A program made the translations under genes and the position numbers. Under the pieces are notes generated by a model, which was given only the letters and a program-made list of their open reading frames with translations, made no database searches and was not told where the DNA came from. From Escherichia phage phi92, in the sequence record NC_023693.1: a stretch of 64,000 bases of DNA, one strand, 5' to 3'. Positions 32,335 through 56,875 of the stretch are shown here, in pieces (position 1 is the first letter of the stretch; each line of letters opens with the position of its first letter).

Positions 32335-35300
32335 TCAGTGACAAGTTGACCATGAACTACCAACATCGTAACCAGCAGTGAGAGGTACATTAAGATTGTA
32401 ATACTCACCAGCTTTATTAACAGCGATAGATGCTAATTCTCCAGCACGACTGTAGGCTGTAAACCAACCACCTTTCGGAGATTCATGTACGTTAGCCCAA
32501 ATCTTGCCAGTACGTTTCTCTTCCTCTTCTTTCCAGGCATTAACTTTATCCAAACATTCTTTATCAATTTTCTTTTGTTCCTCTGGATCATCAACTTGAG
32601 TCCAACCTAAAGATTCTTTAGAGAACCATTTAAAATGCACCAGATCACGAGTTACTTCAAGCTGTGCTTCATCGTGATATGCAATCATTTGTTGAACGAA
32701 TGACTTATTTTTCCAGTCATCAACAAAAAAGTCAACAGCTAATCCTTCTTCTTCGATAAGATCGTCGTAGATAACCATTGCTCTTTTTGCACAAATAACA
32801 CCACCACTCTGGAACAGAGAGTTAAGTATTGCGTGTGCAGATCGTGTAGGTACTTTCCTACCATCAATACCAAGAATGTATTTCTTACCTGTTTTAACCC
32901 AAAAATCATGCAGACGTTCTTTAAGAAGCGCAAGAGGTTTTGCAGCTTCCCAGAAAGCATCGTATACAAGCTGTCCTGTATACATATCACTACCTATAGT
33001 TTTTGCTACTTTTGCAGCTTGAGCACCATAAGTAATACCATACTTAACAGATTTAGCAGGGCTTCGTTCAAACTTACGACCAATAGTGTCAGAAATACGT
33101 CGAGCCATCATTGTATGAACATCATTAGGTTTTTCCAATAATAGAGCATTACAATATTCGTGTGGTTCCTGCTCGTACCGCCAACAATTCCCTGTAATCG
33201 TGATGCAGTCTTTCTGACGCATAACCCATGTACCGAGTTCTGTTTGTGGACACCAAACATCTTCTACACCCCATTCTTCAATAGTCAGACTTTGAACAGG
33301 GATGTGAGAGCGGTTAGCCAACGTTGCCACTTTTACTTTCTGGTCTTTCGTATTGAAGGCTACAGAAATATTACCCCCATGAACCAGGTATGAGGCAGTT
33401 AAGGCTGCTTCAAAAAGTTCTCCTGGGTTCTGCGCCCAGCGCCAAACAGGTTTTTGTTTATGTTTGTGCCAGTAACCATCCGCAATCAAAAAACCTTCCA
33501 AGAAAGCCACACGCTCGGCATGAGACATATTAACTACACGTTCTACCCACGGAACATCCCATTTACCTTGTTGAACAGAAGTTAAACTATTTACTTGATC
33601 TTGTTCCATGTTAAATGGAGCATTACAAATAATGTTATCTCCTGTGCAAAGCTCGGCAGTTGTTCTGACTTTAGGCACATAAGTATTCCCTGTACTACGA
33701 GTATTAACATACCAACGGTGATCTGCTGTTGCACGATAAGTATGGGATTTTCCTTTAATCTCAAACGTCTTACTATTTTTATAGAAGACCTTACCTTTTA
33801 CTTTAGTCCATTCTTTAAGTCCTGTTTCTGGGTTATATCCTAAGATTTCATCCCCTTCTTGTAGATCGTGATAACCAACCCAACCTTTACGGGTTAGTGC
33901 TTGTGCATCCATAGGTACACAGTAGTGTGATTCTATTTTTGCCTCAAGAGAATCAAAGTCATAACCAATTTGGAAGTATTTTGGAACTTCTACACCAAAT
34001 AAGTTACGCATTTCATATCCGTACAGAGATGTTACACGTGGGATATTTGCTACTAACCTATGTTTCATACGAGACGTAGCTGCATCACACGTTGCAGCAG
34101 GAGTTGGTATACGACCATCAGCCCTTACTGCTGCCAGATAACCTTTATCGTAATCCTCTTCATCTTCTTCCCAATCAGCACCACCTCCTAGAATAGAGTT
34201 CCTACGGTGTTTATACGTAAGATACTGCACAATCTGCGTAGCATAAGGAAACTTTTCACCTAGTGCTTCCAAGTTAGGACAAATATCTTTCTCTTGCCCT
34301 TTTGTAAAGGAAGGGTTAGTAAGCACTTTAACACCACGACCTTTAGCTTTAGCAATACGATCTCTTAGTTTCCATTCCAAAGTTTCTGGTGTGCACTCCA
34401 GATGATCACATCTGTCCTGGCAGAAGTTAGATGCCAATGTTTGATCAACATAGTCACGAATAGCTTTCTCCATTTGTGCTTCATCTTTCTTAATCTTAGT
34501 GCCAGATTTAAGAGTGATATCTTTATCTTTATATTCAGATGGACTCCAACCTAAACCAACTAACCAGTTTTTAATATGTGTCGTGTCGTCTAAAGTAGCA
34601 GGTACTGTAGGATCACAAATAGGTTCTTCTGCTGGAATAGGTAGTTTAAACTCTTTACCTAAAGCAAATAACCACCAACCATCTTCTTTTTGTACAAGTT
34701 CACCAGAATGTTTCTCTGCAAACTTTATCATGTTACTTGAAGGTTCACCATTCTTTTTAAACTGTAGTTTAGGTGGAATGAATGATTTCAAATAACCTTT
34801 AGTAGCAGGTTTAGGAGGTAGCACAGGTTCTGCCTCTAAACGACATGCTTCCATTCGAGCATCCAGATCACGAATATTATCTTCTGCTTGTTTCATATTG
34901 AAAGCAAAGCCACGGTGCTCTTGACGTGTAATAATATCCGCTACACGTTGTTCTAAGTTAAATGGTTCAGACCACTTATTATAATCACCCCACTCTTCCA
35001 TCAAATAACGGAACACTGCGGTGTTAGCTTTGTTATCGTAAATACAGTAATACAGCATATCTGCTGCAAATGTTTTAAATCTTTCAGTTTCAGGGATATT
35101 TTTTCTAAAATCAATTTTAACATCCCCTCCAGCTTTCTTAGATAACTCTGCCAGACTATGACCACCGAAGCGATCAGGGTTTAGTGTCTTACTTAAGATC
35201 ATAGTATCACAAATTTCAATGTTACTATTACCCCAAGTATTGTACTTAATACTGTAGTTGAGTTTAAAAAATAATTTAATTGCCAGTAAGTCAAAGTTAA

Positions 35301-35649
35301 TGATGTTATGTCCAACTACTTTGGTAATTTTATAGTTTGAATTACCTTTAAATTTACCTGTTCCATTTACAAAATCAGGAAAATCTTTAAGAGGGAAATG
35401 GGTATATTCTAAATGCTCATATTCCTCCAGTCGGTATTCATACTTTCCGTCAGTCTCAACATACGGACGACCATCGAAAAGATATTTATCACCATCATGG
35501 AAAGCAATAATCTCTCCAGTATCATGACTTTCGCACACAATACAGTGCATTGCAAAACTATCTTTTAAACGATATGGACTTGCCAAGTAATCTACACTTT
35601 CGTCATTAAGCAAGTTGTTACTTTCAATGTCGAAAGTAAAAGCTCCCAT
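32335..35649 (-). CDS. DNA polymerase, family A (T7-like) with 3'-5' exonuclease domain; intein-containing
   Basis: Exo I motif FDIES near the N-terminus; motif A-like GYDFDSLEAKIESHY; motif B-like RKFERSPAKSVKYGITYGAQAAK; NDVHT; a ~245 aa insertion between motif A and the following conserved segment. Confidence 0.75.
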   Translation of the reverse strand: MGAFTFDIESNNLLNDESVDYLASPYRLKDSFAMHCIVCESHDTGEIIAFHDGDKYLFDGRPYVETDGKYEYRLEEYEHLEYTHFPLKDFPDFVNGTGKFKGNSNYKITKVVGHNIINFDLLAIKLFFKLNYSIKYNTWGNSNIEICDTMILSKTLNPDRFGGHSLAELSKKAGGDVKIDFRKNIPETERFKTFAADMLYYCIYDNKANTAVFRYLMEEWGDYNKWSEPFNLEQRVADIITRQEHRGFAFNMKQAEDNIRDLDARMEACRLEAEPVLPPKPATKGYLKSFIPPKLQFKKNGEPSSNMIKFAEKHSGELVQKEDGWWLFALGKEFKLPIPAEEPICDPTVPATLDDTTHIKNWLVGLGWSPSEYKDKDITLKSGTKIKKDEAQMEKAIRDYVDQTLASNFCQDRCDHLECTPETLEWKLRDRIAKAKGRGVKVLTNPSFTKGQEKDICPNLEALGEKFPYATQIVQYLTYKHRRNSILGGGADWEEDEEDYDKGYLAAVRADGRIPTPAATCDAATSRMKHRLVANIPRVTSLYGYEMRNLFGVEVPKYFQIGYDFDSLEAKIESHYCVPMDAQALTRKGWVGYHDLQEGDEILGYNPETGLKEWTKVKGKVFYKNSKTFEIKGKSHTYRATADHRWYVNTRSTGNTYVPKVRTTAELCTGDNIICNAPFNMEQDQVNSLTSVQQGKWDVPWVERVVNMSHAERVAFLEGFLIADGYWHKHKQKPVWRWAQNPGELFEAALTASYLVHGGNISVAFNTKDQKVKVATLANRSHIPVQSLTIEEWGVEDVWCPQTELGTWVMRQKDCITITGNCWRYEQEPHEYCNALLLEKPNDVHTMMARRISDTIGRKFERSPAKSVKYGITYGAQAAKVAKTIGSDMYTGQLVYDAFWEAAKPLALLKERLHDFWVKTGKKYILGIDGRKVPTRSAHAILNSLFQSGGVICAKRAMVIYDDLIEEEGLAVDFFVDDWKNKSFVQQMIAYHDEAQLEVTRDLVHFKWFSKESLGWTQVDDPEEQKKIDKECLDKVNAWKEEEEKRTGKIWANVHESPKGGWFTAYSRAGELASIAVNKAGEYYNLNVPLTAGYDVGSSWSTCH
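33187..33921 (-). mobile_element. intein (aa 577-821 of the polymerase ORF) with one LAGLIDADG-like motif
   Basis: Starts with Cys (CVPMD...), TxxH block (TADHRW), LAGLIDADG-like FLEGFLIADGY, ends ...ITGN with +1 Cys (CWRY); removing it restores a contiguous motif A segment. Confidence 0.6.
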
Positions 35650-43348: not shown

Positions 43349-43372
43349 TAAAATATGCGCCCCGAAGGGCGC
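43349..43372 (-). terminator. intrinsic terminator downstream of terD
   Basis: GCGCCC-ttcg-GGGCGC followed on the - strand by ATATTTT. Confidence 0.5.
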
Positions 43373-43381
43373 TATGATTTA

Positions 43382-43978
43382 TTACTCGAACCAATCGTCG
43401 CCAGCGCCAAACGCTTTAACTACATCGTAAATATCAAGCCCAGCTTTACCCACACCATACGCTTTCAGTTTCCATTCGCTATCTTCTCGCACCAGGGAGG
43501 CAACGTGGCAAATGGTGTTACCTGCAAGTTCTGGAGCCAAGAAGTCAAAGTCCAGCAGTTCAACATTACGTTCATCATCGAAGATTTTAAGGAAACCTTC
43601 GGTAGCGTGACCAAGGCGTTTCTTACCCGTTTCGTCATCAATAGTAATTACGAATGCAATTTCCTGTGCTTCAGCAGAGATATTATCCAGTGTAACATCA
43701 ATCTGCTCCATTTGTCCTACACCGTCACGAACATCTTCACCTGCAAAAGTAGAACGTTCAGGATCAAATTTCTGTGCGTAGCATACCAGGTGGCGAGGAG
43801 ACAACAGTTCCGGCAGACCAGATGCATTGTGTCGGCAAATCAGAGCACTAACATCCAGATCCAGTTTTTCGTTAGATTTCCAAGAGAATTCCAGACGAAT
43901 GCGTTTCAGTGCTGGTGCGATCTTTTTCAGGGAAACTTTTTCGCTAGAACCTTTTTTCAGGGAAATTTTCTGAGTCAT
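43382..43978 (-). CDS. terD: TerD-family stress protein
   Basis: N-terminal ISLKKG...VSLKK, DLDVSA, FVITIDD and EWKLKAYG blocks match the TerD domain as I recall it; AAGGAG RBS. Confidence 0.6.
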   Translation of the reverse strand: MTQKISLKKGSSEKVSLKKIAPALKRIRLEFSWKSNEKLDLDVSALICRHNASGLPELLSPRHLVCYAQKFDPERSTFAGEDVRDGVGQMEQIDVTLDNISAEAQEIAFVITIDDETGKKRLGHATEGFLKIFDDERNVELLDFDFLAPELAGNTICHVASLVREDSEWKLKAYGVGKAGLDIYDVVKAFGAGDDWFE

Positions 43979-44015
43979 AATTTATTATCTCCTTTGTTGT
44001 TAATTTACGTTGTCT

Positions 44016-44043
44016 ATTTTACTAATCTTTTCTACAAAGTCAA
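44016..44043 (-). promoter_or_regulatory. sigma70-like promoter (-35 TTGACT, 16 nt spacer, -10 TAAAAT)
   Basis: On the - strand upstream of terD; TTGACT is the complement of 44038-44043 and TAAAAT of 44016-44021. Confidence 0.5.
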
Positions 44044-44050
44044 GCGTTTT

Positions 44051-44845
44051 TTACGCTTTTGCTCCGAATTTTTTAACCCACTCACCAAACTCTTCGGATA
44101 ACAGTTTATCGTAAAGTTCTTCGTCAGACAAGGACAAATCTGCAATACCGATAAAATCAACATTATCGTATTCTTTTGCCAAGTCTTTCAGGAATTTAAA
44201 GTTTGCATTACCTACACCAACCATAAACCAGTAAACAGGAGTGTTGCGGTGTTTGTTCAGCAAACTACGTACTGCTGAAGTATCCATGTTCTCCCCGTCA
44301 GTTTGGAAGAAAATCATTGCAGGAGTACGATCAACTTGTGCATCAGTATCTACAACCTGTTCTACAACAGTACGTGTAACTTCTACACGTTCTTTTTTAC
44401 CAGTTAGTTTAGCAAGGAAACCCTTAGCCGGAACTTCTTCATACTCAACGACTTCGCGTGTAATATTTTTCATAGGTACACTACCGAAGTATGTATCATA
44501 GATCTCTTGCATTACTGGGGCATAAGCTGTACCACCATTGATGCAAACATTAGACATACAAGAGCCGACATAATCATCATATACATCAGCCGTTGCGGGA
44601 GGCAGTTCAAAAGAAGAACTATTGAAAGCCCACATGTCAATCTGTGCATTATCATCAAATTTCATACCAAACGGCAGCAGCTTACCTACAAAATCACTAA
44701 CAGTGCCATCACGATACAGCTCACACATACTACCCGAAATATCTAAGGCGCTACCGACACGAAGAACAACATCGTTAATCTTTTTCTTACGCAGAGATAC
44801 GGTAAGAGTTTCTTGACGTTTTTTAAGACTGATTTTATTGGACAT
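44051..44845 (-). CDS. von Willebrand factor A domain protein (TerY-like)
   Basis: MIDAS motif DISGSM, downstream GGT and FQTDGE; TerD-like N-terminal ISLKK...VSLRK segment. Confidence 0.55.
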   Translation of the reverse strand: MSNKISLKKRQETLTVSLRKKKINDVVLRVGSALDISGSMCELYRDGTVSDFVGKLLPFGMKFDDNAQIDMWAFNSSSFELPPATADVYDDYVGSCMSNVCINGGTAYAPVMQEIYDTYFGSVPMKNITREVVEYEEVPAKGFLAKLTGKKERVEVTRTVVEQVVDTDAQVDRTPAMIFFQTDGENMDTSAVRSLLNKHRNTPVYWFMVGVGNANFKFLKDLAKEYDNVDFIGIADLSLSDEELYDKLLSEEFGEWVKKFGAKA

Positions 44846-44846
44846 A

Positions 44847-45116
44847 TTATTTCTCCTTTCTGAGTGTAATGTTAGTAACTTCTAAATCCACTTCTACCAT
44901 TTCTGTATCATATGAAATACAGCTAAGTTGACCTCTTTGTGAACCGTTCAGACACATTGCTTGGTTTGTATTAACCTTAATAAACACTAAGTTTCTGAAC
45001 GTATCTAAACCAGCATCTTGATAGGCAACATAATATACAAATGTATCACCTGCGTCAAGTTCTCCAAAACATTTAGGTTCATCTGATTCGTCGTCTTTGA
45101 TATTAAATTTAAGCAC
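44847..45116 (-). CDS. hypothetical protein
   Basis: 89 aa ORF. Confidence 0.4.
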   Translation of the reverse strand: MLKFNIKDDESDEPKCFGELDAGDTFVYYVAYQDAGLDTFRNLVFIKVNTNQAMCLNGSQRGQLSCISYDTEMVEVDLEVTNITLRKEK

Positions 45117-45672
45117 TATCTTCTCCTTTACCTACTTTCAAGCCTAAATAGAAAGCCTCTCTAGTGATTTTTTGCAACTCGTTTAAAGAGATAGTTACAA
45201 CTAAATCATCTTCAATTTCTAGTTTTGAGTCTTCTTCTGTCTCAATGCAAGTATTATGCACTTTGTGGTAAGGATTGTCAACACGTTTAAATTTATTATT
45301 TTCAGTGCTGAAGAAGCAATCTGGATCTTCTTCCCCATCACCCCAACCCTGGTTAGGATCTTCTTCAGATCTTTCTGTTGGGATCTCACCTGTAAAGTGT
45401 TCTTCTAATACCAGAGCAATCCCATCTCCAAGATCGGAAGAGAACATCAAATTACAAACTTCTTCCCAAGGCATAGACCACTTAAATCTTTTACGATTGC
45501 CATGTTTATCTTCTTCGTTAGAGAAAACACTACCATAGCTATCATAATTCCCATACATCTCTTCGACAACCTTACCACCTTTCAAAAGAAATAGGTAGCA
45601 AGGAGAGCCATCGAAAGAGGTAGAGAGAGCAGCATTACCAGACTCTTTGCACAAGAAACTAAAACACCCCAT
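45109..45672 (-). CDS. hypothetical protein
   Basis: 187 aa acidic ORF. Confidence 0.4.
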   Translation of the reverse strand: MGCFSFLCKESGNAALSTSFDGSPCYLFLLKGGKVVEEMYGNYDSYGSVFSNEEDKHGNRKRFKWSMPWEEVCNLMFSSDLGDGIALVLEEHFTGEIPTERSEEDPNQGWGDGEEDPDCFFSTENNKFKRVDNPYHKVHNTCIETEEDSKLEIEDDLVVTISLNELQKITREAFYLGLKVGKGEDSA

Positions 45673-45872
45673 TATACACCAGCCTTAAGATCAATTAAAG
45701 CCAAAGTTGTTTCAGAGTGTGTTTGCTCGTCTACAGGCGCAGTCATATGATAATACAAAAAATCTTCGGCATCATACCAATCTGATTCTTGACCTTGTTT
45801 CCAACCATCAATGAAAGCATCTTCCATAATGGTTTGCAATTCTTCACGAGTTAAGTGAATATCTTTACTCAT
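45672..45872 (-). CDS. hypothetical protein
   Basis: 66 aa ORF with start/stop coupled to neighbours. Confidence 0.35.
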   Translation of the reverse strand: MSKDIHLTREELQTIMEDAFIDGWKQGQESDWYDAEDFLYYHMTAPVDEQTHSETTLALIDLKAGV

Positions 45873-46105
45873 TACACATTCTCCTCTTTTACCAATTCCA
45901 TCGTTGAATTGTCAAAACCATCTTTAGAAGAATAGGTATAGACAGAACGTAGTTCTCGCAGGACAGTGAATACATTAGGATCATCTAACCAAGCATCCTG
46001 GAGGAGAACATAACGATCTTCATTGTCATACTGAACAGCAATCATAGAACCAGACAGTTTGTAAATTTTAATATTCATAATATATTTCTCCTTAAAGTAG
46101 ACCAC
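45872..46105 (-). CDS. hypothetical protein
   Basis: 77 aa ORF. Confidence 0.35.
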   Translation of the reverse strand: MVYFKEKYIMNIKIYKLSGSMIAVQYDNEDRYVLLQDAWLDDPNVFTVLRELRSVYTYSSKDGFDNSTMELVKEENV

Positions 46106-47195
46106 GTTTAACAGTTTGAATCATACCATCTTCAAGAGATTGCACTTCTTGAATGTAATCAATACGGGCAGCACGGGCTTCAGTGTTGATTCGGTTAGTT
46201 TCTTCCAACATTTTAACTAAGTTTTCTTGATCACGACGTAATGTTTCAATATCCAATACTTGACGATTAGCAAGTTGTGTAGCTTCAATTTGGTTTTGTG
46301 CAGCCAGATCACTACCCATTGCAATAGCAGCATTAAATTCATTCAGTACATTGTTCTGTGTATCGGCTGCTTTCTTCTGGCGTAGACTTTCAATATACAT
46401 AGAAAAGTTTGCAGAGTAAGCAGGGATAACATTATTCACAATATTACGGGCTGATCGCATCAAACTTGCAGATACTTTCTGCATACTTTGTACACGTGGC
46501 CCCATCTGAACACACAGTAAGCGTAAGGCTTTCAGGTCTGCAATACGAATTTCAAGCAGATCCATAGTATCACGAGTACGCTGACGCTCTTCTACGTCAT
46601 TTTCAGGCAGTGTATTAAGGCGAATTTCTTCTTTTTCATAAGTAGCTGTTAGAAGCTCTATATCTCTGTTTAAGCTAAGAGCATATTTTGCAATAGCCTC
46701 TTCTAAACGTTGCAGATATCGTAAAGAATCTTCTTCTTTTTTCAAGTCTGTTTGGAGTGTCTTTACCAAACCTTCAATACGGTTATTAATGGTGTCAAAT
46801 TCTCCAAACAAATCTTCTTTCATACCTAAAACTTTTTTAACTAGTTTACCTAAACCTTTAGATTGTTTAATAGAGTTAGGATCAAGTTGCTTTGCTTGCT
46901 TAATAAGTGCAGTTAAACGTTCACTCATTTCATCTCCCTGAGATGAACGCTGGTGTTTAAGCACTTCAGCATTAAGGTTACGAAGAGTAAGTCCTGCATC
47001 AGCACCAACCTGTTCAATCTCTTCACGCGACATTGGAGGCAGCATTTGTACAGGTCGTGCAACAGCAGGGGCATATACAGGGCTTGCATCCATAGCACTT
47101 GGAGCAAACAAAGACTTACTTTTTTCTGTTGTTGCCGTGAATACACTCATTTCAGACGGTTTGCTTTTTACGGCACTGATAAAAGGACTGGACAT
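46092..47195 (-). CDS. telA: TelA-like (toxic anion resistance) protein
   Basis: 367 aa, highly alpha-helical; C-terminal VLDIETLRRDQENLVKMLEETNRINTEARAARI resembles the conserved TelA/YceH C-terminal block; GGAGGA RBS. Confidence 0.5.
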   Translation of the reverse strand: MSSPFISAVKSKPSEMSVFTATTEKSKSLFAPSAMDASPVYAPAVARPVQMLPPMSREEIEQVGADAGLTLRNLNAEVLKHQRSSQGDEMSERLTALIKQAKQLDPNSIKQSKGLGKLVKKVLGMKEDLFGEFDTINNRIEGLVKTLQTDLKKEEDSLRYLQRLEEAIAKYALSLNRDIELLTATYEKEEIRLNTLPENDVEERQRTRDTMDLLEIRIADLKALRLLCVQMGPRVQSMQKVSASLMRSARNIVNNVIPAYSANFSMYIESLRQKKAADTQNNVLNEFNAAIAMGSDLAAQNQIEATQLANRQVLDIETLRRDQENLVKMLEETNRINTEARAARIDYIQEVQSLEDGMIQTVKRGLL

Positions 47196-47263
47196 TCAAT
47201 TTCCTCCATATTCTTTAGTAAATGGTGATACCTCTGTACCACCATCATAACACAAATTAAGTA

Positions 47264-48133
47264 TTAAACAAACATATCTAAATAATTTGTAGTAATAAAT
47301 GCTCCATCTGCTTCCAGATTAACATAACCAGTAGCATTAGTGGTTAAGAAATCCAGATCGAAGGACTCTTTAACACCCCGTACCTCAACACGAGAGATAT
47401 CGAATACAGGTAGTGTAACAGCCTCTTCGTGCAATACCGTACCTTTGTAGGTTGCCTTAATGATAAACTTGATATTACCTGTTCCAGCATCATATAAAAC
47501 ACTTTCAAACCCTTTGAGAGTATATTTATCACCAGAGGTGAAGTGCAAAGTTGCTTTGTTTACAGTACGGTTCTTACGAGGAGTTCCTTTCACACGTTTA
47601 TGATCACTACGTCTTTTGCATTTAGGAATGAATACAAACGATACACTCTCAAGAAAGGTATCAACATCAAGGATTTTAATATCCTCTGTTGCAGCAAATT
47701 TTGAAGTAGTTGCATCAAAATGCTTTTCCCTGCGATCATACATAAAGATATCAAACCGATCTTCTAAATCAAACCGATCTTCTAAATCAAACAAATTATG
47801 CAGTTTAATTTCAGAATGCTTGCACATTGCAGCAACCTTAAACTCTTCAAAACGTGGGTGTTCTACAAGTTCTTCAAGTTTTACACCAAAGACAGTATAT
47901 TGTTTCGAAGTTTTTTCTGGTGTTGGCATTACAGAAGCATAATCACCGATTGCGCTCTTAAAGCAAAATTGTTCTTGACCTGTATTTTTACCAACGAATT
48001 TACAGTATTCGTCATCGTGCATACTTTCCTGGGTAGTACCAACAAACTCAAAACCATCTTTATTCTTCTCAAGGATTTCTTGATTAAAGATCCAACCTTC
48101 CAGGCGATATACTTTACCAACTTCTAGTTTCAT
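47264..48133 (-). CDS. hypothetical protein (contains an 18 bp tandem duplication)
   Basis: 289 aa; internal DLEDRFDLEDRF encoded by the tandem repeat at 47751-47786. Confidence 0.4.
   Translation of the reverse strand: MKLEVGKVYRLEGWIFNQEILEKNKDGFEFVGTTQESMHDDEYCKFVGKNTGQEQFCFKSAIGDYASVMPTPEKTSKQYTVFGVKLEELVEHPRFEEFKVAAMCKHSEIKLHNLFDLEDRFDLEDRFDIFMYDRREKHFDATTSKFAATEDIKILDVDTFLESVSFVFIPKCKRRSDHKRVKGTPRKNRTVNKATLHFTSGDKYTLKGFESVLYDAGTGNIKFIIKATYKGTVLHEEAVTLPVFDISRVEVRGVKESFDLDFLTTNATGYVNLEADGAFITTNYLDMFV
47751..47786. repeat. perfect 18 bp tandem duplication (TCAAACCGATCTTCTAAA x2, plus a partial third copy)
   Basis: Positions 47751-47768 and 47769-47786 are identical; in frame within the CDS. 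Confidence 0.8.
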
Positions 48134-48168
48134 CTGTTTCTCCTTCTTATTTAATCTGTATTAAATTA

Positions 48169-48774
48169 TTAACGACGACGTGAGCTACTAAAACTACGTT
48201 TCGACGAAGAATAACTTTTCGAAGACTTACTATAAGAGCTAATAGGGCTTGAGTAAGACTTACGAGCAGAGTAATCACTATTCACTTTCGTTGTTGATGG
48301 GCGTGAATACGTTTGTACACTTTGCTGCTTAATTGTGTTTTGTTTAGTGGTTGTATATGTATTTCCTTGTTTATCATAAAAACTATGCTTTTGTGTTGTA
48401 TATGCTTTACTGTTAGTTGTAGGAGCAGCGTTGTTATTAATAATTGTTGTGTTGCTACCACCATCTCTATAACCGCCACCGCCACTATTACCACTCAACA
48501 TATGACCAAGAAGCATACCTGTAGCAAACTCACCTACACCAGAAGAACCACTGCCGCCTCCTTGCACAACAACTGTTGAAGGTTGTGCAGGTGCTGCTTG
48601 AACAACTTGAGGTGCAGGCTGATTTACATATTGTTCATCTACCATCTGATTTGGTGTTTGTTGGTAACGTTGATTTTGTACATTTTCAGAATCATCACAA
48701 CCTACCAGCAATGCACTACCTAAAACAACTGCAACAATAAAAGATTTAATGTTTTTCATTTGTAACCCTCTCAT
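48169..48774 (-). CDS. putative lipoprotein with low-complexity Ser/Tyr-rich C-terminus
   Basis: Signal peptide with lipobox-like LLVGC; Gly-rich stretch; C-terminal SYSSPISSYSKSSKSYSSSKRSFSSSRRR. Confidence 0.45.
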   Translation of the reverse strand: MRGLQMKNIKSFIVAVVLGSALLVGCDDSENVQNQRYQQTPNQMVDEQYVNQPAPQVVQAAPAQPSTVVVQGGGSGSSGVGEFATGMLLGHMLSGNSGGGGYRDGGSNTTIINNNAAPTTNSKAYTTQKHSFYDKQGNTYTTTKQNTIKQQSVQTYSRPSTTKVNSDYSARKSYSSPISSYSKSSKSYSSSKRSFSSSRRR

Positions 48775-48952
48775 TTAAAGTCTCAACACAATTTTTAAAA
48801 TCCCTAGAGAAACAATACATCTGTTCTCCGTTCCTGTTGATAGTAATTGTATGGTTATCAATATATGTTGTCAAGATAAAAATCAAACAAAACAACCCTA
48901 GAGCAAAACAAATATTTTCAAACAGAATCCAAAGAACACGTAAAACCACCAT
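48746..48952 (-). CDS. small membrane protein
   Basis: 68 aa with an N-terminal hydrophobic helix. Confidence 0.35.
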   Translation of the reverse strand: MVVLRVLWILFENICFALGLFCLIFILTTYIDNHTITINRNGEQMYCFSRDFKNCVETLNERVTNEKH

Positions 48953-48967
48953 CAGATCACCTCAACA

Positions 48968-48985
48968 AAGCCCCCGAAGGGGCTT
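48968..48985 (-). terminator. GC hairpin, possible terminator downstream of terC
   Basis: AAGCCCC-cgaa-GGGGCTT, weak T-tract. Confidence 0.4.
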
Positions 48986-48991
48986 AATGAA

Positions 48992-49969
48992 TTAAGCAAC
49001 AGTCTGGTCTTCTTTTTCAGGGAAGATTAAACTTGCAACAACACCCAACCCAAGAGTACCTAACACAATATACATACTGATCGTCGGATCAATGTGTGCT
49101 GGCAGGAAACTGGCTTTTGCGTGCAGAGTTTCTGCAAACGGGTGATACATCAGTTTTACACCCACAAACACCAGGACTACGATAACTGCTTTCTCCAGAT
49201 GAACCAAATATTTCAGTGCAACACTAAGGACAAAGAACAGAGCACGTAGACCTAAGATTGCACAGAGCATCGAAGAGAACACTAGCAGAGGTTCTTGTGT
49301 CACTGCAATCACTGCTGGAACAGAGTCTACTGCAAAGATTACGTCAACCATTTCCATTACAAACACACAAACCAGAGCCGGAGTTGCTACACGAACACCA
49401 TTTTTGATTGTGAAGAACTTCTCACCATCCATCTGATCAGATACAGGGAACAGCTTACGAACAATGCGAGTAGCCCAGTGTTTAGAGTAATCAACTTCTG
49501 CATCATTATCTCCAGCGAATACCATTTTAGCCGCACAGAAAAGGATGACAGCACCGAAGAAGATATTAACATACCAGCCCAAACTCAACAAGTAAGTACC
49601 TACTGCTACAAACACACCTCGGAAGACAATCGCACCTGCAATACCCCAAAGTAGAATCTTGTGCTGCAAGTGTGTGCTTTTAATACCAAAACTTGCGAAT
49701 ACTGCTACAAATACTACTAAGTTATCTACAGAAAGAGATTTCTCCAACACATACCCACTCAAGAACAAGCTCGCAAAATCAGCACCGTGTTGGAAGTATA
49801 CAAAACCATAGTAGGCTAATGATACCCCAATCCAGAAAATTGACCAGCCAATTGCAGATTTAAATGAAATTTCTTTGTTTTCTCTGTGTCCAAAGAAATC
49901 AATACAAATCGACAAGACTAAAATACCCACTAAAACAACCACATCAATAATTGGGAAACCCAGTTGCAT
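48992..49969 (-). CDS. terC: TerC-family integral membrane protein
   Basis: Multiple TM helices and the characteristic EKSLSVDNL segment. Confidence 0.6.
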   Translation of the reverse strand: MQLGFPIIDVVVLVGILVLSICIDFFGHRENKEISFKSAIGWSIFWIGVSLAYYGFVYFQHGADFASLFLSGYVLEKSLSVDNLVVFVAVFASFGIKSTHLQHKILLWGIAGAIVFRGVFVAVGTYLLSLGWYVNIFFGAVILFCAAKMVFAGDNDAEVDYSKHWATRIVRKLFPVSDQMDGEKFFTIKNGVRVATPALVCVFVMEMVDVIFAVDSVPAVIAVTQEPLLVFSSMLCAILGLRALFFVLSVALKYLVHLEKAVIVVLVFVGVKLMYHPFAETLHAKASFLPAHIDPTISMYIVLGTLGLGVVASLIFPEKEDQTVA

Positions 49970-50046
49970 TCTTTTCTCCTCTTTAATGCGGAGGACAATC
50001 CTCCGCTCTATGTCGTATACTATAAACTGTTTTTAAAGAAAGTCAA

Positions 50047-50295
50047 CTAGTTCAGTTCTGTAATTTTAAGTTTATCTTCTTTGTTAATGATAGGGAAAGC
50101 TACAGCATCACCTACATCATCAATAAAGCAAATAGCAAGACCACCTTCCACTTTGCTAACCTGACCATTAAAGGCGTGATACGGGGCAGGAACAATATCT
50201 CCATCTTCAAGGAGAATAGCCTCATAAACCTTACCAATAGTACAATCACGAGTGTTTTTAAATTTTTCAAGCACTTCAACATTTACTTTACGCAT
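50047..50295 (-). CDS. hypothetical protein
   Basis: 82 aa ORF. Confidence 0.4.
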   Translation of the reverse strand: MRKVNVEVLEKFKNTRDCTIGKVYEAILLEDGDIVPAPYHAFNGQVSKVEGGLAICFIDDVGDAVAFPIINKEDKLKITELN

Positions 50296-50309
50296 ATAAA
50301 GATCCTCTC

Positions 50310-50516
50310 TTATTTGTTAGATTGAAAGATACCACGAAGTACCGCAAGAATGAACGTCACACAGACTACACTCCAAAACGTTACAGGAACATGATGCCAG
50401 TCTAAACCGATAATGTCAATCATATAGTTGTATGCTAAAAGCAGTAGCCAACTAGGGATTAACACAATCAAGAACACAACAATAAAACAACCTAATACTG
50501 CTAAAACACCTGCCAT
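50310..50516 (-). CDS. small membrane protein
   Basis: 68 aa, two hydrophobic helices. Confidence 0.4.
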   Translation of the reverse strand: MAGVLAVLGCFIVVFLIVLIPSWLLLLAYNYMIDIIGLDWHHVPVTFWSVVCVTFILAVLRGIFQSNK

Positions 50517-50525
50517 ACTTTCTCC

Positions 50526-51242
50526 TTATTTCAGTTTGTAAACAATTACATTTAAACCTTTGTTCACTAGAGTTTCTTCGATCATAAGTTTTACAATATT
50601 CCAAGAACCTCCAGCCAAACCACAACCAAGCATTGGTAAACCTACAATTTTACCGCCTGAAGATACAACATCGTCTCCCATACTATCTAACGCATTGTAG
50701 ATAGCTTCATAATTCAGGTCACGCTTACCTTCCTCACGACGACTATAACCATATTGTCCATATAAATTATAAATTGTCAAATTGTTTTCTGTATACTTAG
50801 TAAACGTACCTAATTTTTTATAATCACCACGTTTAGTGGCACAATCTGCTTTAAACGCACCAGGCCACTTGCTTTTAATTTTTGGTGCAATACCACTACC
50901 CATAGTGCAAAAACAGTTACAGCAGTGTGCTATAGCGTCTATATCGCCTCTCTCGGCTGCTGCTAAAAGATCACCGTATACCTCAATGATACCTGCTGGA
51001 TAACTTGTTACAATTTCATCTTCCCAGTACATTTGCTCTACACCACCGATCAGTGCAAAGTTTTGTGTAATGCGATCATCAATATAATTAAGACCTGAAA
51101 CATACACAGCATATTCATCCTGTGCTGTAATACCTTGTACACGAATTCTTAAGACACCATCTTTATCTGTTGCTACACGCCCAAAATCTTTTTCTGTAAT
51201 ATTGGTGATAGGATCTCCGAAAGTCGTCACTTTATTAGACAT
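50526..51242 (-). CDS. macro domain protein (ADP-ribose binding/processing)
   Basis: IDAIAHCCNCFCTMGSGIA and LGCGLAGG resemble macro-domain Gly-rich loops; start taken at the internal ATG (MSNKV...) that overlaps the upstream stop (ATGTCTAA); the ORF track extends to 51359. Confidence 0.45.
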   Translation of the reverse strand: MSNKVTTFGDPITNITEKDFGRVATDKDGVLRIRVQGITAQDEYAVYVSGLNYIDDRITQNFALIGGVEQMYWEDEIVTSYPAGIIEVYGDLLAAAERGDIDAIAHCCNCFCTMGSGIAPKIKSKWPGAFKADCATKRGDYKKLGTFTKYTENNLTIYNLYGQYGYSRREEGKRDLNYEAIYNALDSMGDDVVSSGGKIVGLPMLGCGLAGGSWNIVKLMIEETLVNKGLNVIVYKLK

Positions 51243-52092
51243 AATAATCCCCTTTAACATTAGATTTGTTGATAATGTTGCTTTCAAAAAATTGACGCAG
51301 GAAATCAAAGTTCTCTTTGTATTTTTCAATATTATTGTAACCTTCTGCAAGGCAACCAAAGAACAGTTGTTCTACATAATACAAAGGAAGTTGTGAAAGT
51401 GCAATTTTAAAATCAACTTCGCTTTGACTCATTAGATACTTAATAGGACGAACCAAACATTTAGCATCAGTTTCTTGCTTAATCATTTTAATAAAAGCTG
51501 CCAGGTTATTGATATAGTTGAAGTTAAGTGCAGCTTCGGTGTTGGCTTCTGTACCTTCATACTTTGCAAAGTACAGGAAAAACGTATCGTTTTCAACACC
51601 TTCTTTGTCTAAAATTTCAATAAGTTTTTCTTCGTGTGTACCTGTAATATTAACATCATCAATGAAAATCAGATTTTTATCGCCCCAAAAATCACGATTG
51701 ATAGAGAAAGTATCACCATCGATCAAAGCCTTACGATCTTCTTTGCTAAGAAATCCATAATCATTGATATAGCTCACTTTACGATGAACGATATCCCACT
51801 CTACTGCTTTACCTCCTTTGATAGAGATTAGGTAGTTGAGGTGATCTACAAAATGTTCAGATAACACTGTAGCTGCATTTTTAACATAGTTATATGGAGA
51901 TGGAATAACAACAAAACTTTCATTTACCAGTCGTTCTTCATATTTAGAAAAGAAACTTTCAGCCAGAATGCGTCCCATTCTTTTTGCTGCCTGGTTGCTG
52001 CCAAACTTTAGTTTGGAATAATCTGCAATGTTAAATTTTGCTTCCTTCAGGTTAGTAAAAGTATTAGCAAAATGTTGAATTTGATTACGCAT
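51235..52092 (-). CDS. phosphoribosyltransferase (type I PRTase fold)
   Basis: NLIFIDDVNITGTHEEKL matches the PRPP-binding motif (hydrophobic strand, DD, then TG-T). Confidence 0.5.
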   Translation of the reverse strand: MRNQIQHFANTFTNLKEAKFNIADYSKLKFGSNQAAKRMGRILAESFFSKYEERLVNESFVVIPSPYNYVKNAATVLSEHFVDHLNYLISIKGGKAVEWDIVHRKVSYINDYGFLSKEDRKALIDGDTFSINRDFWGDKNLIFIDDVNITGTHEEKLIEILDKEGVENDTFFLYFAKYEGTEANTEAALNFNYINNLAAFIKMIKQETDAKCLVRPIKYLMSQSEVDFKIALSQLPLYYVEQLFFGCLAEGYNNIEKYKENFDFLRQFFESNIINKSNVKGDYYV

Positions 52093-52741
52093 TAATAAGT
52101 TCCTCTTTTTTAAGTTTAGCCAACAAGTCTTCTGGATTAATAATATGACAGAACTTCATCCCTATGTCAACAGCTTTTCCATCATAAATCAAACTATCTC
52201 CAACGTGTAAAATCTCCTCTGGTGCGAGATCAAACGTTACCATTTCATCAAAAGAGAGTTTAAAAAACCTAGGATCTGGTTTACACAAGCAAAACTCATC
52301 AGAAAAATGCATAAAGTCAAATGGTAATTTTGTCAAGCCAGAATATACAGCTAAGAAACTACCAGGTACAAAATTAGTATTGCTCTTAATACTCAAAGAG
52401 TAGGTTGAACTTAGCTCTTCCAACTTCTTGCAAAGTTCAGGATTCAAGGTTGGAGGATGTTTTATAAACATTGCTAAACAGTCTCTTTTTAACCCATCCA
52501 CTTTATCAAGATCAATGTTCAAACGAGTAGAAAGTGTTACCCAAGCATCCTTAGACGTTCCACAAATGCCTTTTTCTGCTTTTAAATCCAAGAGAGTTTT
52601 TACCTCTTTATATACGGTAGCTGCTTCTACCTCAGAACAAGAGGCATACTCGGCAATAACCTTGTTGCGCTCTTCTGCATACAAAGGGTTAGCAGTAATA
52701 AGAGTATTCCATACATCAAAAGAAATATGCTTAACAGTCAT
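52085..52741 (-). CDS. HAD-superfamily hydrolase
   Basis: N-terminal HISFDVWNTL (motif I-like) and C-terminal HVGDSLIYDGKA (motif IV-like); start taken at ATG 52741 with GGAGGA RBS (the ORF track starts at TTG 52759). Confidence 0.45.
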   Translation of the reverse strand: MTVKHISFDVWNTLITANPLYAEERNKVIAEYASCSEVEAATVYKEVKTLLDLKAEKGICGTSKDAWVTLSTRLNIDLDKVDGLKRDCLAMFIKHPPTLNPELCKKLEELSSTYSLSIKSNTNFVPGSFLAVYSGLTKLPFDFMHFSDEFCLCKPDPRFFKLSFDEMVTFDLAPEEILHVGDSLIYDGKAVDIGMKFCHIINPEDLLAKLKKEELINA

Positions 52742-52910
52742 TTTTAATCCTCCGTCCAAAAGAATATCATCTGCTTAATTTTATTGATTTCTTGATGTAG
52801 TAACTTTCCAGCATGTGATTGATCTTTAATATTGACAGCAAGAATTTCAAGTTCCGTTAGTTTTTCTTGGATAGCTTTATATTCATCATCTGTAAGCATT
52901 TTCTTCCCCT

Positions 52911-53102
52911 TTAGAATGGTAATCTTTGTATGTCACTTATCCCCACACCAAGAAGTCTAGCAATATCCTTATCTAAAAGCAACTCTTTTTGTTCTAAAAT
53001 GTTAATCAGATCTCCTAATACTTCTTTAATGTCACGATCATTTTTAGCAACGTGACCACCTGCCGTATCAACTTTATCTTTAAAAACAAAGTAATGATCC
53101 AT
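52911..53102 (-). CDS. hypothetical protein
   Basis: Start taken at the second ATG (MDHYF...), which has GGAGGG RBS; the ORF track extends to 53114. Confidence 0.35.
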   Translation of the reverse strand: MDHYFVFKDKVDTAGGHVAKNDRDIKEVLGDLINILEQKELLLDKDIARLLGVGISDIQRLPF

Positions 53103-53111
53103 AATACCCTC

Positions 53112-53142
53112 CATATAAATAAAGGAGGCTTTCGCCTCCTTT
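53112..53142 (-). terminator. intrinsic terminator downstream of the AAA+ ATPase gene
   Basis: AAAGGAGGC-gaaa-GCCTCCTTT followed on the - strand by ATTTATAT. Confidence 0.5.
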
Positions 53143-54329: not shown

Positions 54330-54800
54330 TTAGTCAGATTCCCAAATGTTGTCTTTCTTAATCCACATTCGTTGATTATCTGAACCTCTATAACGTTTCG
54401 TTGTTGGTTGATTCATATCATACTTACCATCTATCACTATGTCAACCAGTTTTTTAATTTTTTCTGGAATTTCCTCAAAAAGATATCCTGTATATAAGAC
54501 AATATCTTTTTTGTTTCCAAAACAATCTCTTACCTTCTCAAGAACATACTCTACAGTGTCAATGTTCTCTTTGTCAAGAGGTTCACCACCTAAAACTGTT
54601 AATCCTTTAATGAAAGGTCGAGATAAATCTTTCAAGATAAGATCTAATGTTTCAGTAGTGAACTCTTGTCCGTAGTTATACGACCAGGCTTTCTGGTTAA
54701 AGCAGCCACGGCAACCGTGGCTACAACCGCTCACCCACAAAGAGCATCTTACACCGTCACCGTTGAGCATGTCAACAGGTTCATATCCGGCGTAATTCAA
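54330..54800 (-). CDS. nrdG: anaerobic ribonucleoside-triphosphate reductase activating protein (radical SAM)
   Basis: Cys cluster CSHGCRGC (CxxxCxxC), 156 aa, immediately downstream of nrdD with ATGA overlap. Confidence 0.7.
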   Translation of the reverse strand: MNYAGYEPVDMLNGDGVRCSLWVSGCSHGCRGCFNQKAWSYNYGQEFTTETLDLILKDLSRPFIKGLTVLGGEPLDKENIDTVEYVLEKVRDCFGNKKDIVLYTGYLFEEIPEKIKKLVDIVIDGKYDMNQPTTKRYRGSDNQRMWIKKDNIWESD

Positions 54801-55738
54801 AAATGTTTCTCCCTTTCTAGTACCTCTTGCATTTTACCTTTATTATAAGGGCGAGAGTTAGGGGCAGAAAGGTATCCTGACACTCTTCTGATCACAGATA
54901 TGGATTCTTCTTCATGATTACCGCAACTTGGACACTCGAAGCCTTTAGCCGTTGCTTTAAATTCACCATGAAAACCACATTTGAAACACTGATCTACAGG
55001 TTGGTTCACGCCAAAATAAGGAATTTTATTGTAGGCATAATCTACAAGAGTTTCCAGTGCTTGCAAGTTATTTTTAAGGTTTGGTGTTTCTACATAACCT
55101 ATGTTCCCACCATTACTAATTTGTGCAAAACCTTCCTCATAATCCCACTTTTGGAACGGGGTAGTGTGCATCCATACAGGTTGATGGAAAGAGTTTGTCA
55201 AGTAGTCACGATCAATAGAACCAGGATAGCGATCATTTAACGCTTTGGCAAATTTATAGCACAAGGATTCTGCTGGTGTTCCATACAAACTAAAAGCTAA
55301 ACCAGAACGTTCTTTAAATGTGCCACAGATATCCTTCATATATTGAAGGATGTTTTTACCCATTGCTTTTGGATTGGTGTTACCTGGGTATAAAATCTCC
55401 ATAGCTTCTGCTAAACCTACATAACCGATACTAATAGAGGCATAACCACCTTCGAATAGTTTACCAATCTCTTCATTAGCTTCTAATCGAGCTAAAGCCC
55501 CTTCCATAAACAATGTAGGGTTTTGAGATGCTTTGGTATGTCTAATACGGTTAACACGTAGCATATGTGCCTTATACGCCATCTCCATATGTTGTTCCAA
55601 CAGTTCAGTAAATAAGATGCCCTTTTCACGGGACTCTGCTGCAATGATAGGTAAGTTTAAAGAAACTACGCCTAAGTTGAAACGACCATCATATTTTTCA
55701 CCTTGCTCTGTTGCATAGTATGACAAGAAACTTCTACA
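54797..55738 (-). CDS. nrdD: anaerobic ribonucleoside-triphosphate reductase, exon 2
   Basis: Begins CRSFLS... in continuity with exon 1; C-terminal zinc ribbon (CFKCG...CPSCG) and glycyl-radical region RRVSGYL. Confidence 0.7.
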   Translation of the reverse strand, partial: CRSFLSYYATEQGEKYDGRFNLGVVSLNLPIIAAESREKGILFTELLEQHMEMAYKAHMLRVNRIRHTKASQNPTLFMEGALARLEANEEIGKLFEGGYASISIGYVGLAEAMEILYPGNTNPKAMGKNILQYMKDICGTFKERSGLAFSLYGTPAESLCYKFAKALNDRYPGSIDRDYLTNSFHQPVWMHTTPFQKWDYEEGFAQISNGGNIGYVETPNLKNNLQALETLVDYAYNKIPYFGVNQPVDQCFKCGFHGEFKATAKGFECPSCGNHEEESISVIRRVSGYLSAPNSRPYNKGKMQEVLEREKHF

Positions 55739-56017
55739 CATTATGTTCAAAGTGGCTCGCAAGGCCACTCCCGCACCATTACGTGCTGCTGCATGTCACC
55801 ATGCAGATCAGACTATATCTTCATGCTTAAAGCATGTCTACCATTTGGGGTGTCATAGGCTTACACCCTACGCTGCTACATTCATCACAGCTAGTCGTTA
55901 GGCATTTCGTAACAGTACCCCCTTCTTCTGTGTTGGGAGTTCTGTTACGTTTAGCACGGGATTGTCTCGTTGAGAGTTCCCCCGTTTAGGCAGATTTTAC
56001 ATGAGCAGTTATAGTTT
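55739..56017 (-). ncRNA. group I self-splicing intron (ORF-less) interrupting nrdD
   Basis: 279 nt with no ORF separating two in-frame nrdD halves; exon 1 ends in U and the intron ends in G; paired elements present (ACGACTA/TAGTC P7-like, CTGCATG-GTGA-CATGCAG hairpin with GNRA loop, CATGC-TTTAA-GCATG hairpin); resembles my recollection of the T4 nrdD (sunY) intron core. Confidence 0.65.
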
Positions 56018-56875
56018 ACCCATGCTTGTGACGCGACCATCTGAAGATCCTGTAACTTCTTTGTTTAAAGGTACAGAGATAAAATCAGGATAAATGCGTT
56101 CAGCACAACACTCCATTGCCAGTTGCTTCAAATCATAGTTTGGATCGCCAGCTTTCATGTTAACACCATCTTCCAAGAAGAAGATAACTTTAGGAAACAC
56201 AGGAGTTACCCTATCTTTTCCTAATCCTTGTTTGTGCACCATTAGGTAGTTTTTAGTGATCATTCTACCAAAAGCAGAGGTATCCAAACCTAAACTAATT
56301 GTTATAAAAGGTGACTGACCATTTACACTCATTAGAGTGTTCACCTGGTAGATTAAAGTTTGCATTGCATCATAGACCTGTTTATCTACCATACGCATAG
56401 CAATATCATAATCGCCAACATCGGCATATATTTTATTAAAACTTGCTTTAACGTATTGACTAAGCCCAGTATCAACATGTGCACAAGTTTGTCCACCATA
56501 TTGGCTAGAAGCTACTGCTTGAATAATTTGAGTTAGGACAGTAGTCGCTACACCGATAGATTTTGGTTTTTCAATATGTGCATTACCAATACGGAAACCG
56601 TTCTCAAGCATATCTTGGTAATTTACCAGGCAACAATTAGTTAAAGGTGAGAGTAAATAATCTAAATCGTGAATGTGACCATACCCACTTTTATGCCATT
56701 CTGCCAGATCTTCCGGTAAAATATGGGTCATTGCCATGTGCTTGCTTAGGATACCTGCTAGTAAATCTCGGTGAGTATTAACAATCATTGCAGGTTTGTT
56801 TGCATTTTCACGAGTAAATTCTTCGGATGTTTGTTCGAGGAATCCGATTACATCCTCATATAGTTTTTGGGTCAT
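56018..56875 (-). CDS. nrdD: anaerobic ribonucleoside-triphosphate reductase, exon 1
   Basis: N-terminal NrdD-like sequence (RDLLAGILSKH, HIHDLDY, TNCCLV, IEKPKSIGVAT); the ORF track runs two codons (KL) into the intron before the stop. Confidence 0.7.

Follow-up and report, generated by a model that had tools for sequence, protein, structure and literature searches.

According to the part of PMC11994780 that deals with the 2012 analysis by Anantharaman, Iyer and Aravind, Ter biosynthetic modules are made up of two or of five enzymes, a phosphoribosyltransferase (PRTase) and a HAD enzyme always being included, and they are usually accompanied by TerB. It was predicted in that analysis that the module makes a nucleoside-like, probably pyrimidine-derived, metabolite (as related in passages of PMC11994780, PMC8115787 and PMC5512222). 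Ter systems with the PRTase and the HAD enzyme were later described by Iyer et al. (2021; PMC7824862) in a jumbo phage as well as in “certain other related smaller tailed phages”, and the role proposed there for phage Ter systems was action against superinfecting phages. We found no experimental work in the literature on the Ter PRTase and HAD enzymes, on phage Ter clusters, or, in the Stephanstirmvirinae, on the trio of adjoining HAD, PRTase and macrodomain genes which is the subject of this report. The trio lies in a 64,000-nucleotide stretch of Escherichia phage phi92 (NC_023693.1; the whole stretch is called the window here, with positions counted from its first letter). Justusliebigvirus phages (relatives of phi92 and phAPEC8, which are E. 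coli myophages of about 146 kb) share 98-99% identity with the window, whose closest genome match, used below as its annotated twin, is phage Eryne (98.7% identity).

We consider it probable, though by no means certain, that the trio consists of a HAD-PRTase pair standing at the head of a phage-borne Ter (tellurite-resistance-type) cluster of stress or conflict genes, together with a macrodomain gene which is not part of that unit and probably acts independently of it. The pair is a Ter two-enzyme module, of an already known but biochemically uncharacterised kind, here in a mid-sized coliphage. As in other such modules, a PF15610 PRTase gene adjoins a HAD gene, and TerD, TerC, TelA and vWA-TerF genes are found in one block; the order of HAD then PRTase, and the D-x-W-x-T motif of the HAD protein, are those seen in the Ter module of a Hymenobacter plasmid. 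It differs in its carrier, which is a lytic E. coli myophage of 146 kb and not a chromosome, plasmid or jumbo phage, in that TerB, PP2C and kinase genes were not found in the block, and in that the PRTase and TerC genes are separated by an inserted macrodomain gene (with, in relatives, a MazG-like gene as well). The PRTases and HAD protein of enterobacterial ter plasmids, in contrast, have no detectable similarity to the pair in the window.

The HAD-like, PRTase and macrodomain open reading frames (ORFs) all lie on the minus strand, head to tail, exactly where an earlier note on this DNA had put them, and they do overlap, as it had said; the overlap is 8 nucleotides at each of the two junctions. 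The PRTase/macrodomain junction is ATGTCTAA, as reported there, but the HAD/PRTase junction, which had been described as being of the ATGA type, is ATGCGTAA. In the twin genome of Eryne approximately 17 of 56 same-strand junctions (about 30%, by a hand count from the annotation) overlap, and because overlaps are so frequent in this genome they are weak evidence for a common function.

The PRTase matched PF15610 (PRTase_3, annotated as ComF-like) at 6.1e-41, with 141 bits against a Pfam cut-off of 28.7 bits, and this was its sole significant Pfam match, one further hit falling far below its cut-off. The motif IFIDDVNITGT occupies residues 141-151, the phosphoribosyl pyrophosphate (PRPP) loop is IFIDDVNITGTHE, and D145, D146, T150, G151 and T152 are invariant in the family; a helical C-terminal extension follows at residues ~185-280. 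A comparison of the sequence with the PDB gave nothing significant. An AlphaFold2 (AF2) model built from a 76-sequence alignment had a predicted local distance difference test (pLDDT) score of 92.9, and all 47 of its significant Foldseek matches in the PDB were type I PRTases (HGPRT, ComF, PyrR, OPRT), ComF giving the best compact superposition (TM score 0.41, root-mean-square deviation (rmsd) 4.2). The type I assignment made in the earlier note, including the PRPP-binding fold, is therefore upheld. ComFC carries an N-terminal zinc finger. PRTase_3 resembles ComFC (PDB 7p0h) in the name given to PF15610 and in that superposition, but differs from it in having a distinct C-terminal helical domain and in its genomic context, which is HAD and Ter genes rather than the ComFA and DprA genes of ComFC. 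The PRTase gene is annotated as a “Zot-like toxin” in Eryne and as “orotate phosphoribosyltransferase” in other records.

The HAD gene is preceded by a GGAGGA Shine-Dalgarno sequence before its ATG. Its product matched PF00702 at 1.2e-5, with a score (26.2 bits) slightly below the Pfam cut-off of 26.4, and the HAD-IA assignment is backed by eight NCBIfam HAD-IA models and by a match to PDB 2om6 (5e-8), an uncharacterised archaeal protein which also has D-x-W-x-T, all of which agrees with the HAD-like label given earlier. Motifs II (SNT), III (KP) and IV (GDxxxxD) and the nucleophilic Asp are present, and motif I reads FDVWNTL (residues 8-14, window 52715-52735), which is D-x-W-x-T. This form stands in place of D-x-D-x-T in essentially every bacterial and viral HAD homologue of the loci described below (L001-L048; a Tyr was seen once). 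Residues other than Asp at the D+2 position mark dehalogenases, phosphonatases and P-type ATPases. The dephosphorylation which the earlier note had ascribed to this protein is not assured and should be taken as an assumption, because motif I is D-x-W-x-T without the D+2 acid/base Asp that is canonical in HAD phosphatases.

Loci with a PRTase_3 homologue were fetched, 48 in all (21 from species-representative genomes, 16 from IMG/VR, 4 by exact-protein look-ups and 7 from annotated phage or plasmid records), and their six-frame ORFs were searched using the proteins of the window together with Ter proteins from two of those loci. In 47 of the loci, as in the window, a HAD ORF directly precedes the PRTase. 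The only locus without one was L015, a second PRTase_3 copy on a Rhizobium ruizarguesonis plasmid in which the PRTase match is split over two ORFs; this plasmid (CP171850) holds two PRTase_3 loci, L012 and L015, and the L015 copy is possibly decaying. On plasmids the ranges of the HAD and PRTase families are identical and narrow, being Rhizobium, Sinorhizobium and Hymenobacter. The conserved unit is thus the HAD-PRTase pair and not the trio.

The pair heads a minus-strand block of about 9.7 kb (43382-53114), and the TerC/Alx, TelA, vWA-TerF and TerD genes are all downstream of it (Table 1). The TerC/Alx protein also matched TIGR03718, which covers the Alx subfamily, at 1e-96 (323.8 bits, over a cut-off of 246.4 bits). 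Upstream of the HAD gene, the 67-amino acid ORF with which the block begins is conserved in Phapecoctavirus-like relatives as well. The two strongest minus-strand terminator-like hairpins of the region are intergenic and bracket the block exactly, from this ORF to TerD. Ten terminator-like sites were found in the region against 6.5 expected, and promoter and terminator scans of the region were overall no higher than shuffled expectation, so that the two hairpins are possible, suggestive boundaries of a Ter transcription block. The AAA ATPase gene further upstream was considered as a member of the unit and rejected, as it is missing from the Phapecoctavirus-like loci L002 and L028 and as a hairpin lies between it and the block. 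Eryne labels both its vWA-TerF and its TerD gene “HNH endonuclease”, while the TerD gene is elsewhere annotated as “TerD”, “general stress protein” or “tellurium resistance protein”. The BASEL phage Bas61 has the same genes, the trio being annotated there as HAD-like, PRTase and macrodomain and the Ter genes being left hypothetical. PADLOC had no matching model for the Ter proteins or for the HAD-PRTase pair, its sole match being the macrodomain, to DarG.

Table 1. Features of the Ter block of the phi92 window and of its borders, listed in the direction of transcription (aa, amino acids).
Feature	Position in window	Strand	Remarks
Terminator-like hairpin, 9-bp stem and T-rich tail	53121-53142	minus	Follows the AAA ATPase gene; pattern match
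Two small ORFs, 51 and 67 aa	52744-53114	minus	Separate that hairpin from the HAD gene
HAD-IA-like hydrolase, 218 aa from ATG	52085-52741	minus	First enzyme gene of the block, partner of the PRTase
Type I phosphoribosyltransferase, 285 aa	51235-52092	minus	PF15610 (PRTase_3, ComF-like)
Macrodomain protein, 238 aa from ATG	50526-51242	minus	ATG preceded by AAGGGG
Small hydrophobic protein, 68 aa	50310-50516	minus	Adjoins the macrodomain gene in most relatives that have one
Small protein, 82 aa	50047-50295	minus	
TerC/Alx-family integral membrane protein	48992-49969	minus	PF03741, 1e-38
Small hydrophobic protein, 68 aa	48746-48952	minus	Weak DUF6693 match, below cut-off
Putative lipoprotein, Ser/Gly/Gln-rich	48169-48774	minus	Signal peptide, LVGC lipobox; phrog_21570; conserved in the cluster
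Conserved protein, 289 aa	47264-48133	minus	Position kept in relatives
TelA (toxic anion resistance) family protein	46092-47195	minus	PF05816, 2.6e-34
Four small or medium ORFs	44847-46105	minus	Between the TelA and vWA genes
vWA-TerF-like protein	44051-44845	minus	PF10138, 7e-39
TerD-domain protein	43382-43978	minus	PF02342, 5e-28
Terminator-like GC hairpin	43357-43372	minus	Directly after TerD; pattern match

The pair is associated with Ter genes well outside these phages. Bacteroidota, Actinomycetota, Peribacteria and many large phages have it beside genes for TerD, TerC, TelA, vWA-TerF, PP2C or a kinase. On the Hymenobacter plasmid three TerD genes, two vWA genes and PP2C, kinase and TerC-like genes lie beside, and divergent from, the HAD and PRTase genes. 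TerD genes, with or without vWA, PP2C and kinase genes, are near the pair in the bacterial loci L017-L022 (Bacteroidales, Peribacteria and Pedococcus), and TerD, vWA-TerF, TelA or TerC is within 10 kb of it in the viral loci L027, L029, L033, L035, L036 and L039. In KP13-16 an Alx, two TerD and a TelA gene are upstream of the pair, and no macrodomain gene is within 10 kb. Of 50,697 phage records, only 146 contain TerD and only 155 contain PRTase_3, with lists of taxa that nearly coincide. In CcrColossus, CcrPW, Gurke and XaC1 the pair is not next to Ter genes, yet TerD is present elsewhere in the genome. Adenylosuccinate-synthetase (PurA/PurZ-like) genes were seen 4-9 kb from the pair in L041 (16-612), L042 (423-1640) and L047 (10615-11865), three phage loci in which no Ter gene is within 10 kb.

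The third gene of the trio begins 18 nucleotides further upstream in public records (ATG at 51260, giving 244 amino acids) than in Table 1. The macrodomain occupies residues ~89-238 and is ALC1-like, of the SCO6735/BT1257/T4 Tk.4 type. Its Pfam Macro match (2.2e-7, above the gathering score) covers residues 106-217 only, and matches to the solved macrodomains 5e3b and 2fg1, at about 3e-15 to 4e-15, span the whole domain; a single-sequence AF2 model was unusable (pLDDT 37.7), so the fold membership claimed in the earlier note, which we also find, rests on sequence comparison. The closest solved structures are SCO6735 (5e3b), BT1257, TARG1 and DarG, DarG being also the best NCBIfam match. Across 27 members of the family N109, Q163 and the loop GCGLAGG are invariant, and N109 and Q163 correspond to N27 and Q85 of SCO6735. 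In SCO6735 this Asn and this Gln are both required for removal of ADP-ribose from DarT-modified thymidine, and the enzyme acts on proteins too (PMC9411070). The protein of the window differs from TARG1 and DarG in having Gln (in GQYG) at the position of their catalytic Lys (TARG1-K84, DarG-K80), and from TARG1 in having Ala at the position of D125. It is like SCO6735 in this Gln, in the conserved Asn and in a long, basic, mobile loop (SRREEGKRD), but has Ser at the equivalent of Lys89. It is homologous to T4 Tk.4. AdfM, a phage macrodomain demonstrated in 2026 to counter DarTG2 (PMC13309987), and DarG both use the catalytic Lys which is missing here.

Macrodomains are carried by 40-56% of medium and jumbo phages (PMC9503650), and by tblastn we found the family in 2907 phage records, including T4 (Tk.4) and rV5-, FelixO1-, Pakpuna- and Vi1-like phages, compared to 155 records for the PRTase; because of this difference a pathway formed by the trio is doubtful. 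The macrodomain gene follows the PRTase gene in Justusliebigvirus, Phapecoctavirus and the Klebsiella relatives, that is in most Stephanstirmvirinae only; KP13-16 and L029, which are more divergent members of the Stephanstirmvirinae, do not have it there. Other coding sequence of 0.5-0.9 kb separates the two genes in L025 and L026, and among the remaining loci the macrodomain gene was seen once, in L027, 6 kb from the pair. Because the SCO6735-type residues are kept, because AdfM provides a precedent and because macrodomains are common in phages, the gene is read as most likely encoding an independent de-ADP-ribosylase, possibly one acting against DarT2.

Residues 1-88 of the macrodomain protein (50979-51242) are an N-terminal extension which is lineage-specific, occurring in Justusliebigvirus and one other lineage (P0123); only 70 of the 2907 macrodomain phage records have it. 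Klebsiella-type relatives (L025 9424-10068, L026 4027-4587) carry a homologue of this extension at the N-terminus of a gene of its own, which lies between the PRTase and macrodomain genes and consists of this N-domain followed by a MazG-like pyrophosphatase (phrog_1247, 2e-22). The PHROG match was the only one for that gene, which had no match in Pfam or the PDB. The window keeps the N-domain alone, fused to the macrodomain, and P0123 (230 amino acids) is another fused form. The homology of the extension to part of a gene which elsewhere separates PRTase and macrodomain suggests that a deletion fused the N-domain gene to the macrodomain gene.

If the scheme of Anantharaman, Iyer and Aravind is applied here, the PRTase would join PRPP to a base-like acceptor, giving an analogue of a ribonucleoside 5'-monophosphate, and the HAD protein would then process this product, nominally by dephosphorylation, a step which is uncertain given the D-x-W-x-T motif. 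The outcome would be a diffusible nucleoside-like metabolite acting with the Ca2+-binding TerD, membrane TerC/Alx, TelA and vWA proteins; metabolite and Ter proteins together might keep the envelope and ion homeostasis stable in the infected cell, or might exclude competing phages. The macrodomain protein would act alone, for instance on phage DNA, where it would undo ADP-ribosylation of thymidine of the DarT2 type, or on ADP-ribosylated proteins.

Several points weigh against this account of a Ter-linked pair and a separate macrodomain. The acid/base Asp at D+2 of HAD phosphatases is missing from the HAD family in every locus, and the label “phosphatase” may be wrong for it. There is no demonstrated activity for any member of PF15610 or for its HAD partner, and the benefit of a Ter cluster to a lytic phage is conjecture. 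No TerB match was obtained among the ORFs of the 43.3-53.1 kb region scanned against Pfam, TerB being an accessory feature of Ter biosynthetic modules and not a strictly defining one. On rhizobial plasmids the pair has no Ter gene within 10 kb, and the same is true of several phage lineages (L030-32, L034, L037, L038, L040-42 and L047). In the macrodomain, a Cys stands at the position of Val25 of SCO6735. Lastly, the macrodomain gene stays between PRTase and TerC across Justusliebigvirus, Phapecoctavirus and the Klebsiella relatives, whose PRTases are 65-82% identical, and because its position is kept across genera there may be a lineage-specific functional link between it and the PRTase and Ter genes.

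Such a link could mean that the macrodomain was recruited into the Ter enzyme module in the Stephanstirmvirinae and regulates the metabolite signal, either by binding or hydrolysing a ribose-linked derivative of the PRTase/HAD product or by acting on an ADP-ribosylated Ter component. What is kept across those genera is the whole order of HAD, PRTase, insert where present, macrodomain, small ORFs and TerC, and the MazG-like pyrophosphatase gene of the relatives lies within it, its N-terminal domain being the one fused to the macrodomain in the window; moreover SCO6735-type macrodomains cleave a base-N-ribose bond, which is the type of bond that a PRTase makes. However, none of the bacterial Ter loci, and neither KP13-16 nor L029, has a macrodomain within 10 kb of the pair, the distance of 6 kb in L027 also speaks against recruitment, the spread of the macrodomain family among phages exceeds that of the pair by a factor of about 20, and many medium and jumbo phages have a macrodomain regardless (the 40-56% cited above). 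We regard recruitment as unlikely.

It is also unlikely, in our estimation to a similar degree, that the HAD-PRTase_3 pair works independently of Ter and that its adjacency to Ter genes merely reflects the clustering of accessory genes. The pair would then serve nucleotide pools or DNA modification, or the PRTase might act on a macromolecule, as has been proposed for ComFC, ComF being among the best structural matches of the model; the HAD motif, not being of the classical phosphatase type, would fit this as well. On rhizobial plasmids the pair stands alone, next to repA, and in the phage lineages that lack nearby Ter genes its neighbours are nucleotide-metabolism genes, the pair lying alone in several of them among adenylosuccinate synthetase, NT5C-like, RNA ligase and Nudix genes. 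Set against this, TerD, vWA, PP2C and kinase genes accompany the pair repeatedly, in four bacterial phyla and at no fewer than six separate viral loci outside the Stephanstirmvirinae, phages having the pair away from Ter genes still have TerD elsewhere, and the phage records with TerD and with PRTase_3 come from almost coinciding taxa. These distributions argue for the pair as part of Ter.

Less likely again is that phi92/phAPEC8-like phages have an extended Ter module, in which the PRTase product, an unusual N-ribosyl-5'-phosphate, is processed by the HAD protein, by the macrodomain and, in relatives, by the MazG-like protein. Were this so, a new nucleotide-like signal or antimetabolite would be made and turned over, controlling TerD, TerC and TelA during infection.

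The earlier note had proposed that the trio forms a single ADP-ribose- or NAD-related salvage pathway countering NAD-depleting defences, in which the macrodomain would release or process ADP-ribose, the PRTase transfer phosphoribose and the HAD protein dephosphorylate. Among the phage NAD-reconstitution pathways, NARP1 consists of Adps and Namat, and NARP2 of Nampt and Nmnat. In NARP1 it is ADP-ribose that is recycled, in NARP2 nicotinamide is turned into NAD+ by way of nicotinamide mononucleotide (NMN), and NARP3 comprises PnuC and NadR (PMC13464706). The locus shares with these systems phage-encoded genes of ribose-phosphate chemistry, a PRTase included, but none of their defining enzyme families is present in the block, where the comparison with Adps, Namat, NAMPT, NMNAT, NadR and PnuC suggested by the earlier note gave nothing similar. 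The identity of the system as NARP3 was rejected, as NARP3 is PnuC with NadR. The only “nucleotidyltransferase” in the window is a weak PolyA_pol-head match. Although the three genes are contiguous and overlapping, all three domains work on ribose-phosphate chemistry and the pair is followed in Rhizobium phage RHph_TM2_3B by a Nudix gene that bears the annotation “NMN adenylyltransferase/NUDIX”, we consider an NAD salvage trio very improbable, for the PRTase is of type I and ComF-like and not of the NAMPT/Namat type (type II) or Prs/Adps type, neither the block nor the annotated gene set of the twin yielded an NMNAT, NadR or PnuC, most lineages with the pair have no adjacent macrodomain gene, and only HAD and PRTase are conserved as a unit, their conserved neighbours being Ter proteins.

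Some further features of the window were noted apart from the Ter block. The nrdD gene (anaerobic ribonucleotide reductase) is split by a group I intron at 55789-56063 on the minus strand (Rfam RF00028, E 8e-18, with 70.6 bits where the gathering score is 50), leaving ORFs at 54797-55768 and 56009-56875, and nrdD of Eryne is uninterrupted at 1800 nucleotides. The family A DNA polymerase ORF (32335-35649, minus strand) encodes 1104 amino acids versus 860 annotated in Eryne, and the genes downstream of it are shifted by 753 nucleotides relative to Eryne. This suggests that the polymerase carries an in-frame insertion of about 250 amino acids, perhaps a homing element or an intein; Pfam at E<=0.001 gave no match to an intein family in the ORF. 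Four records of “Campylobacter phage” (MG065639, MG065645, MG065656 and MG065689, host C. jejuni) are 98.4% identical to the Justusliebigvirus window over the query region, and probably either their host label is wrong or these are contaminant phages.

No new NAD pathway is revealed by the trio, and the public labels “Zot-like toxin”, “orotate PRTase” and “HNH endonuclease” are corrected. The Gln-type macrodomain, homologous to T4 Tk.4, is a candidate for counter-defence against ADP-ribosylation. What the Ter PRTase and HAD enzymes produce, and how Ter works, have been open questions since 2012, and the block described here is a compact and complete version of Ter in lytic E. coli phages which are easily manipulated (Bas61, for example), so that the question of the metabolite becomes directly testable. 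In such phages the role of the odd HAD motif can be tested too, as can the benefit of the cluster to the phage, which may be superinfection exclusion, envelope protection or neither.

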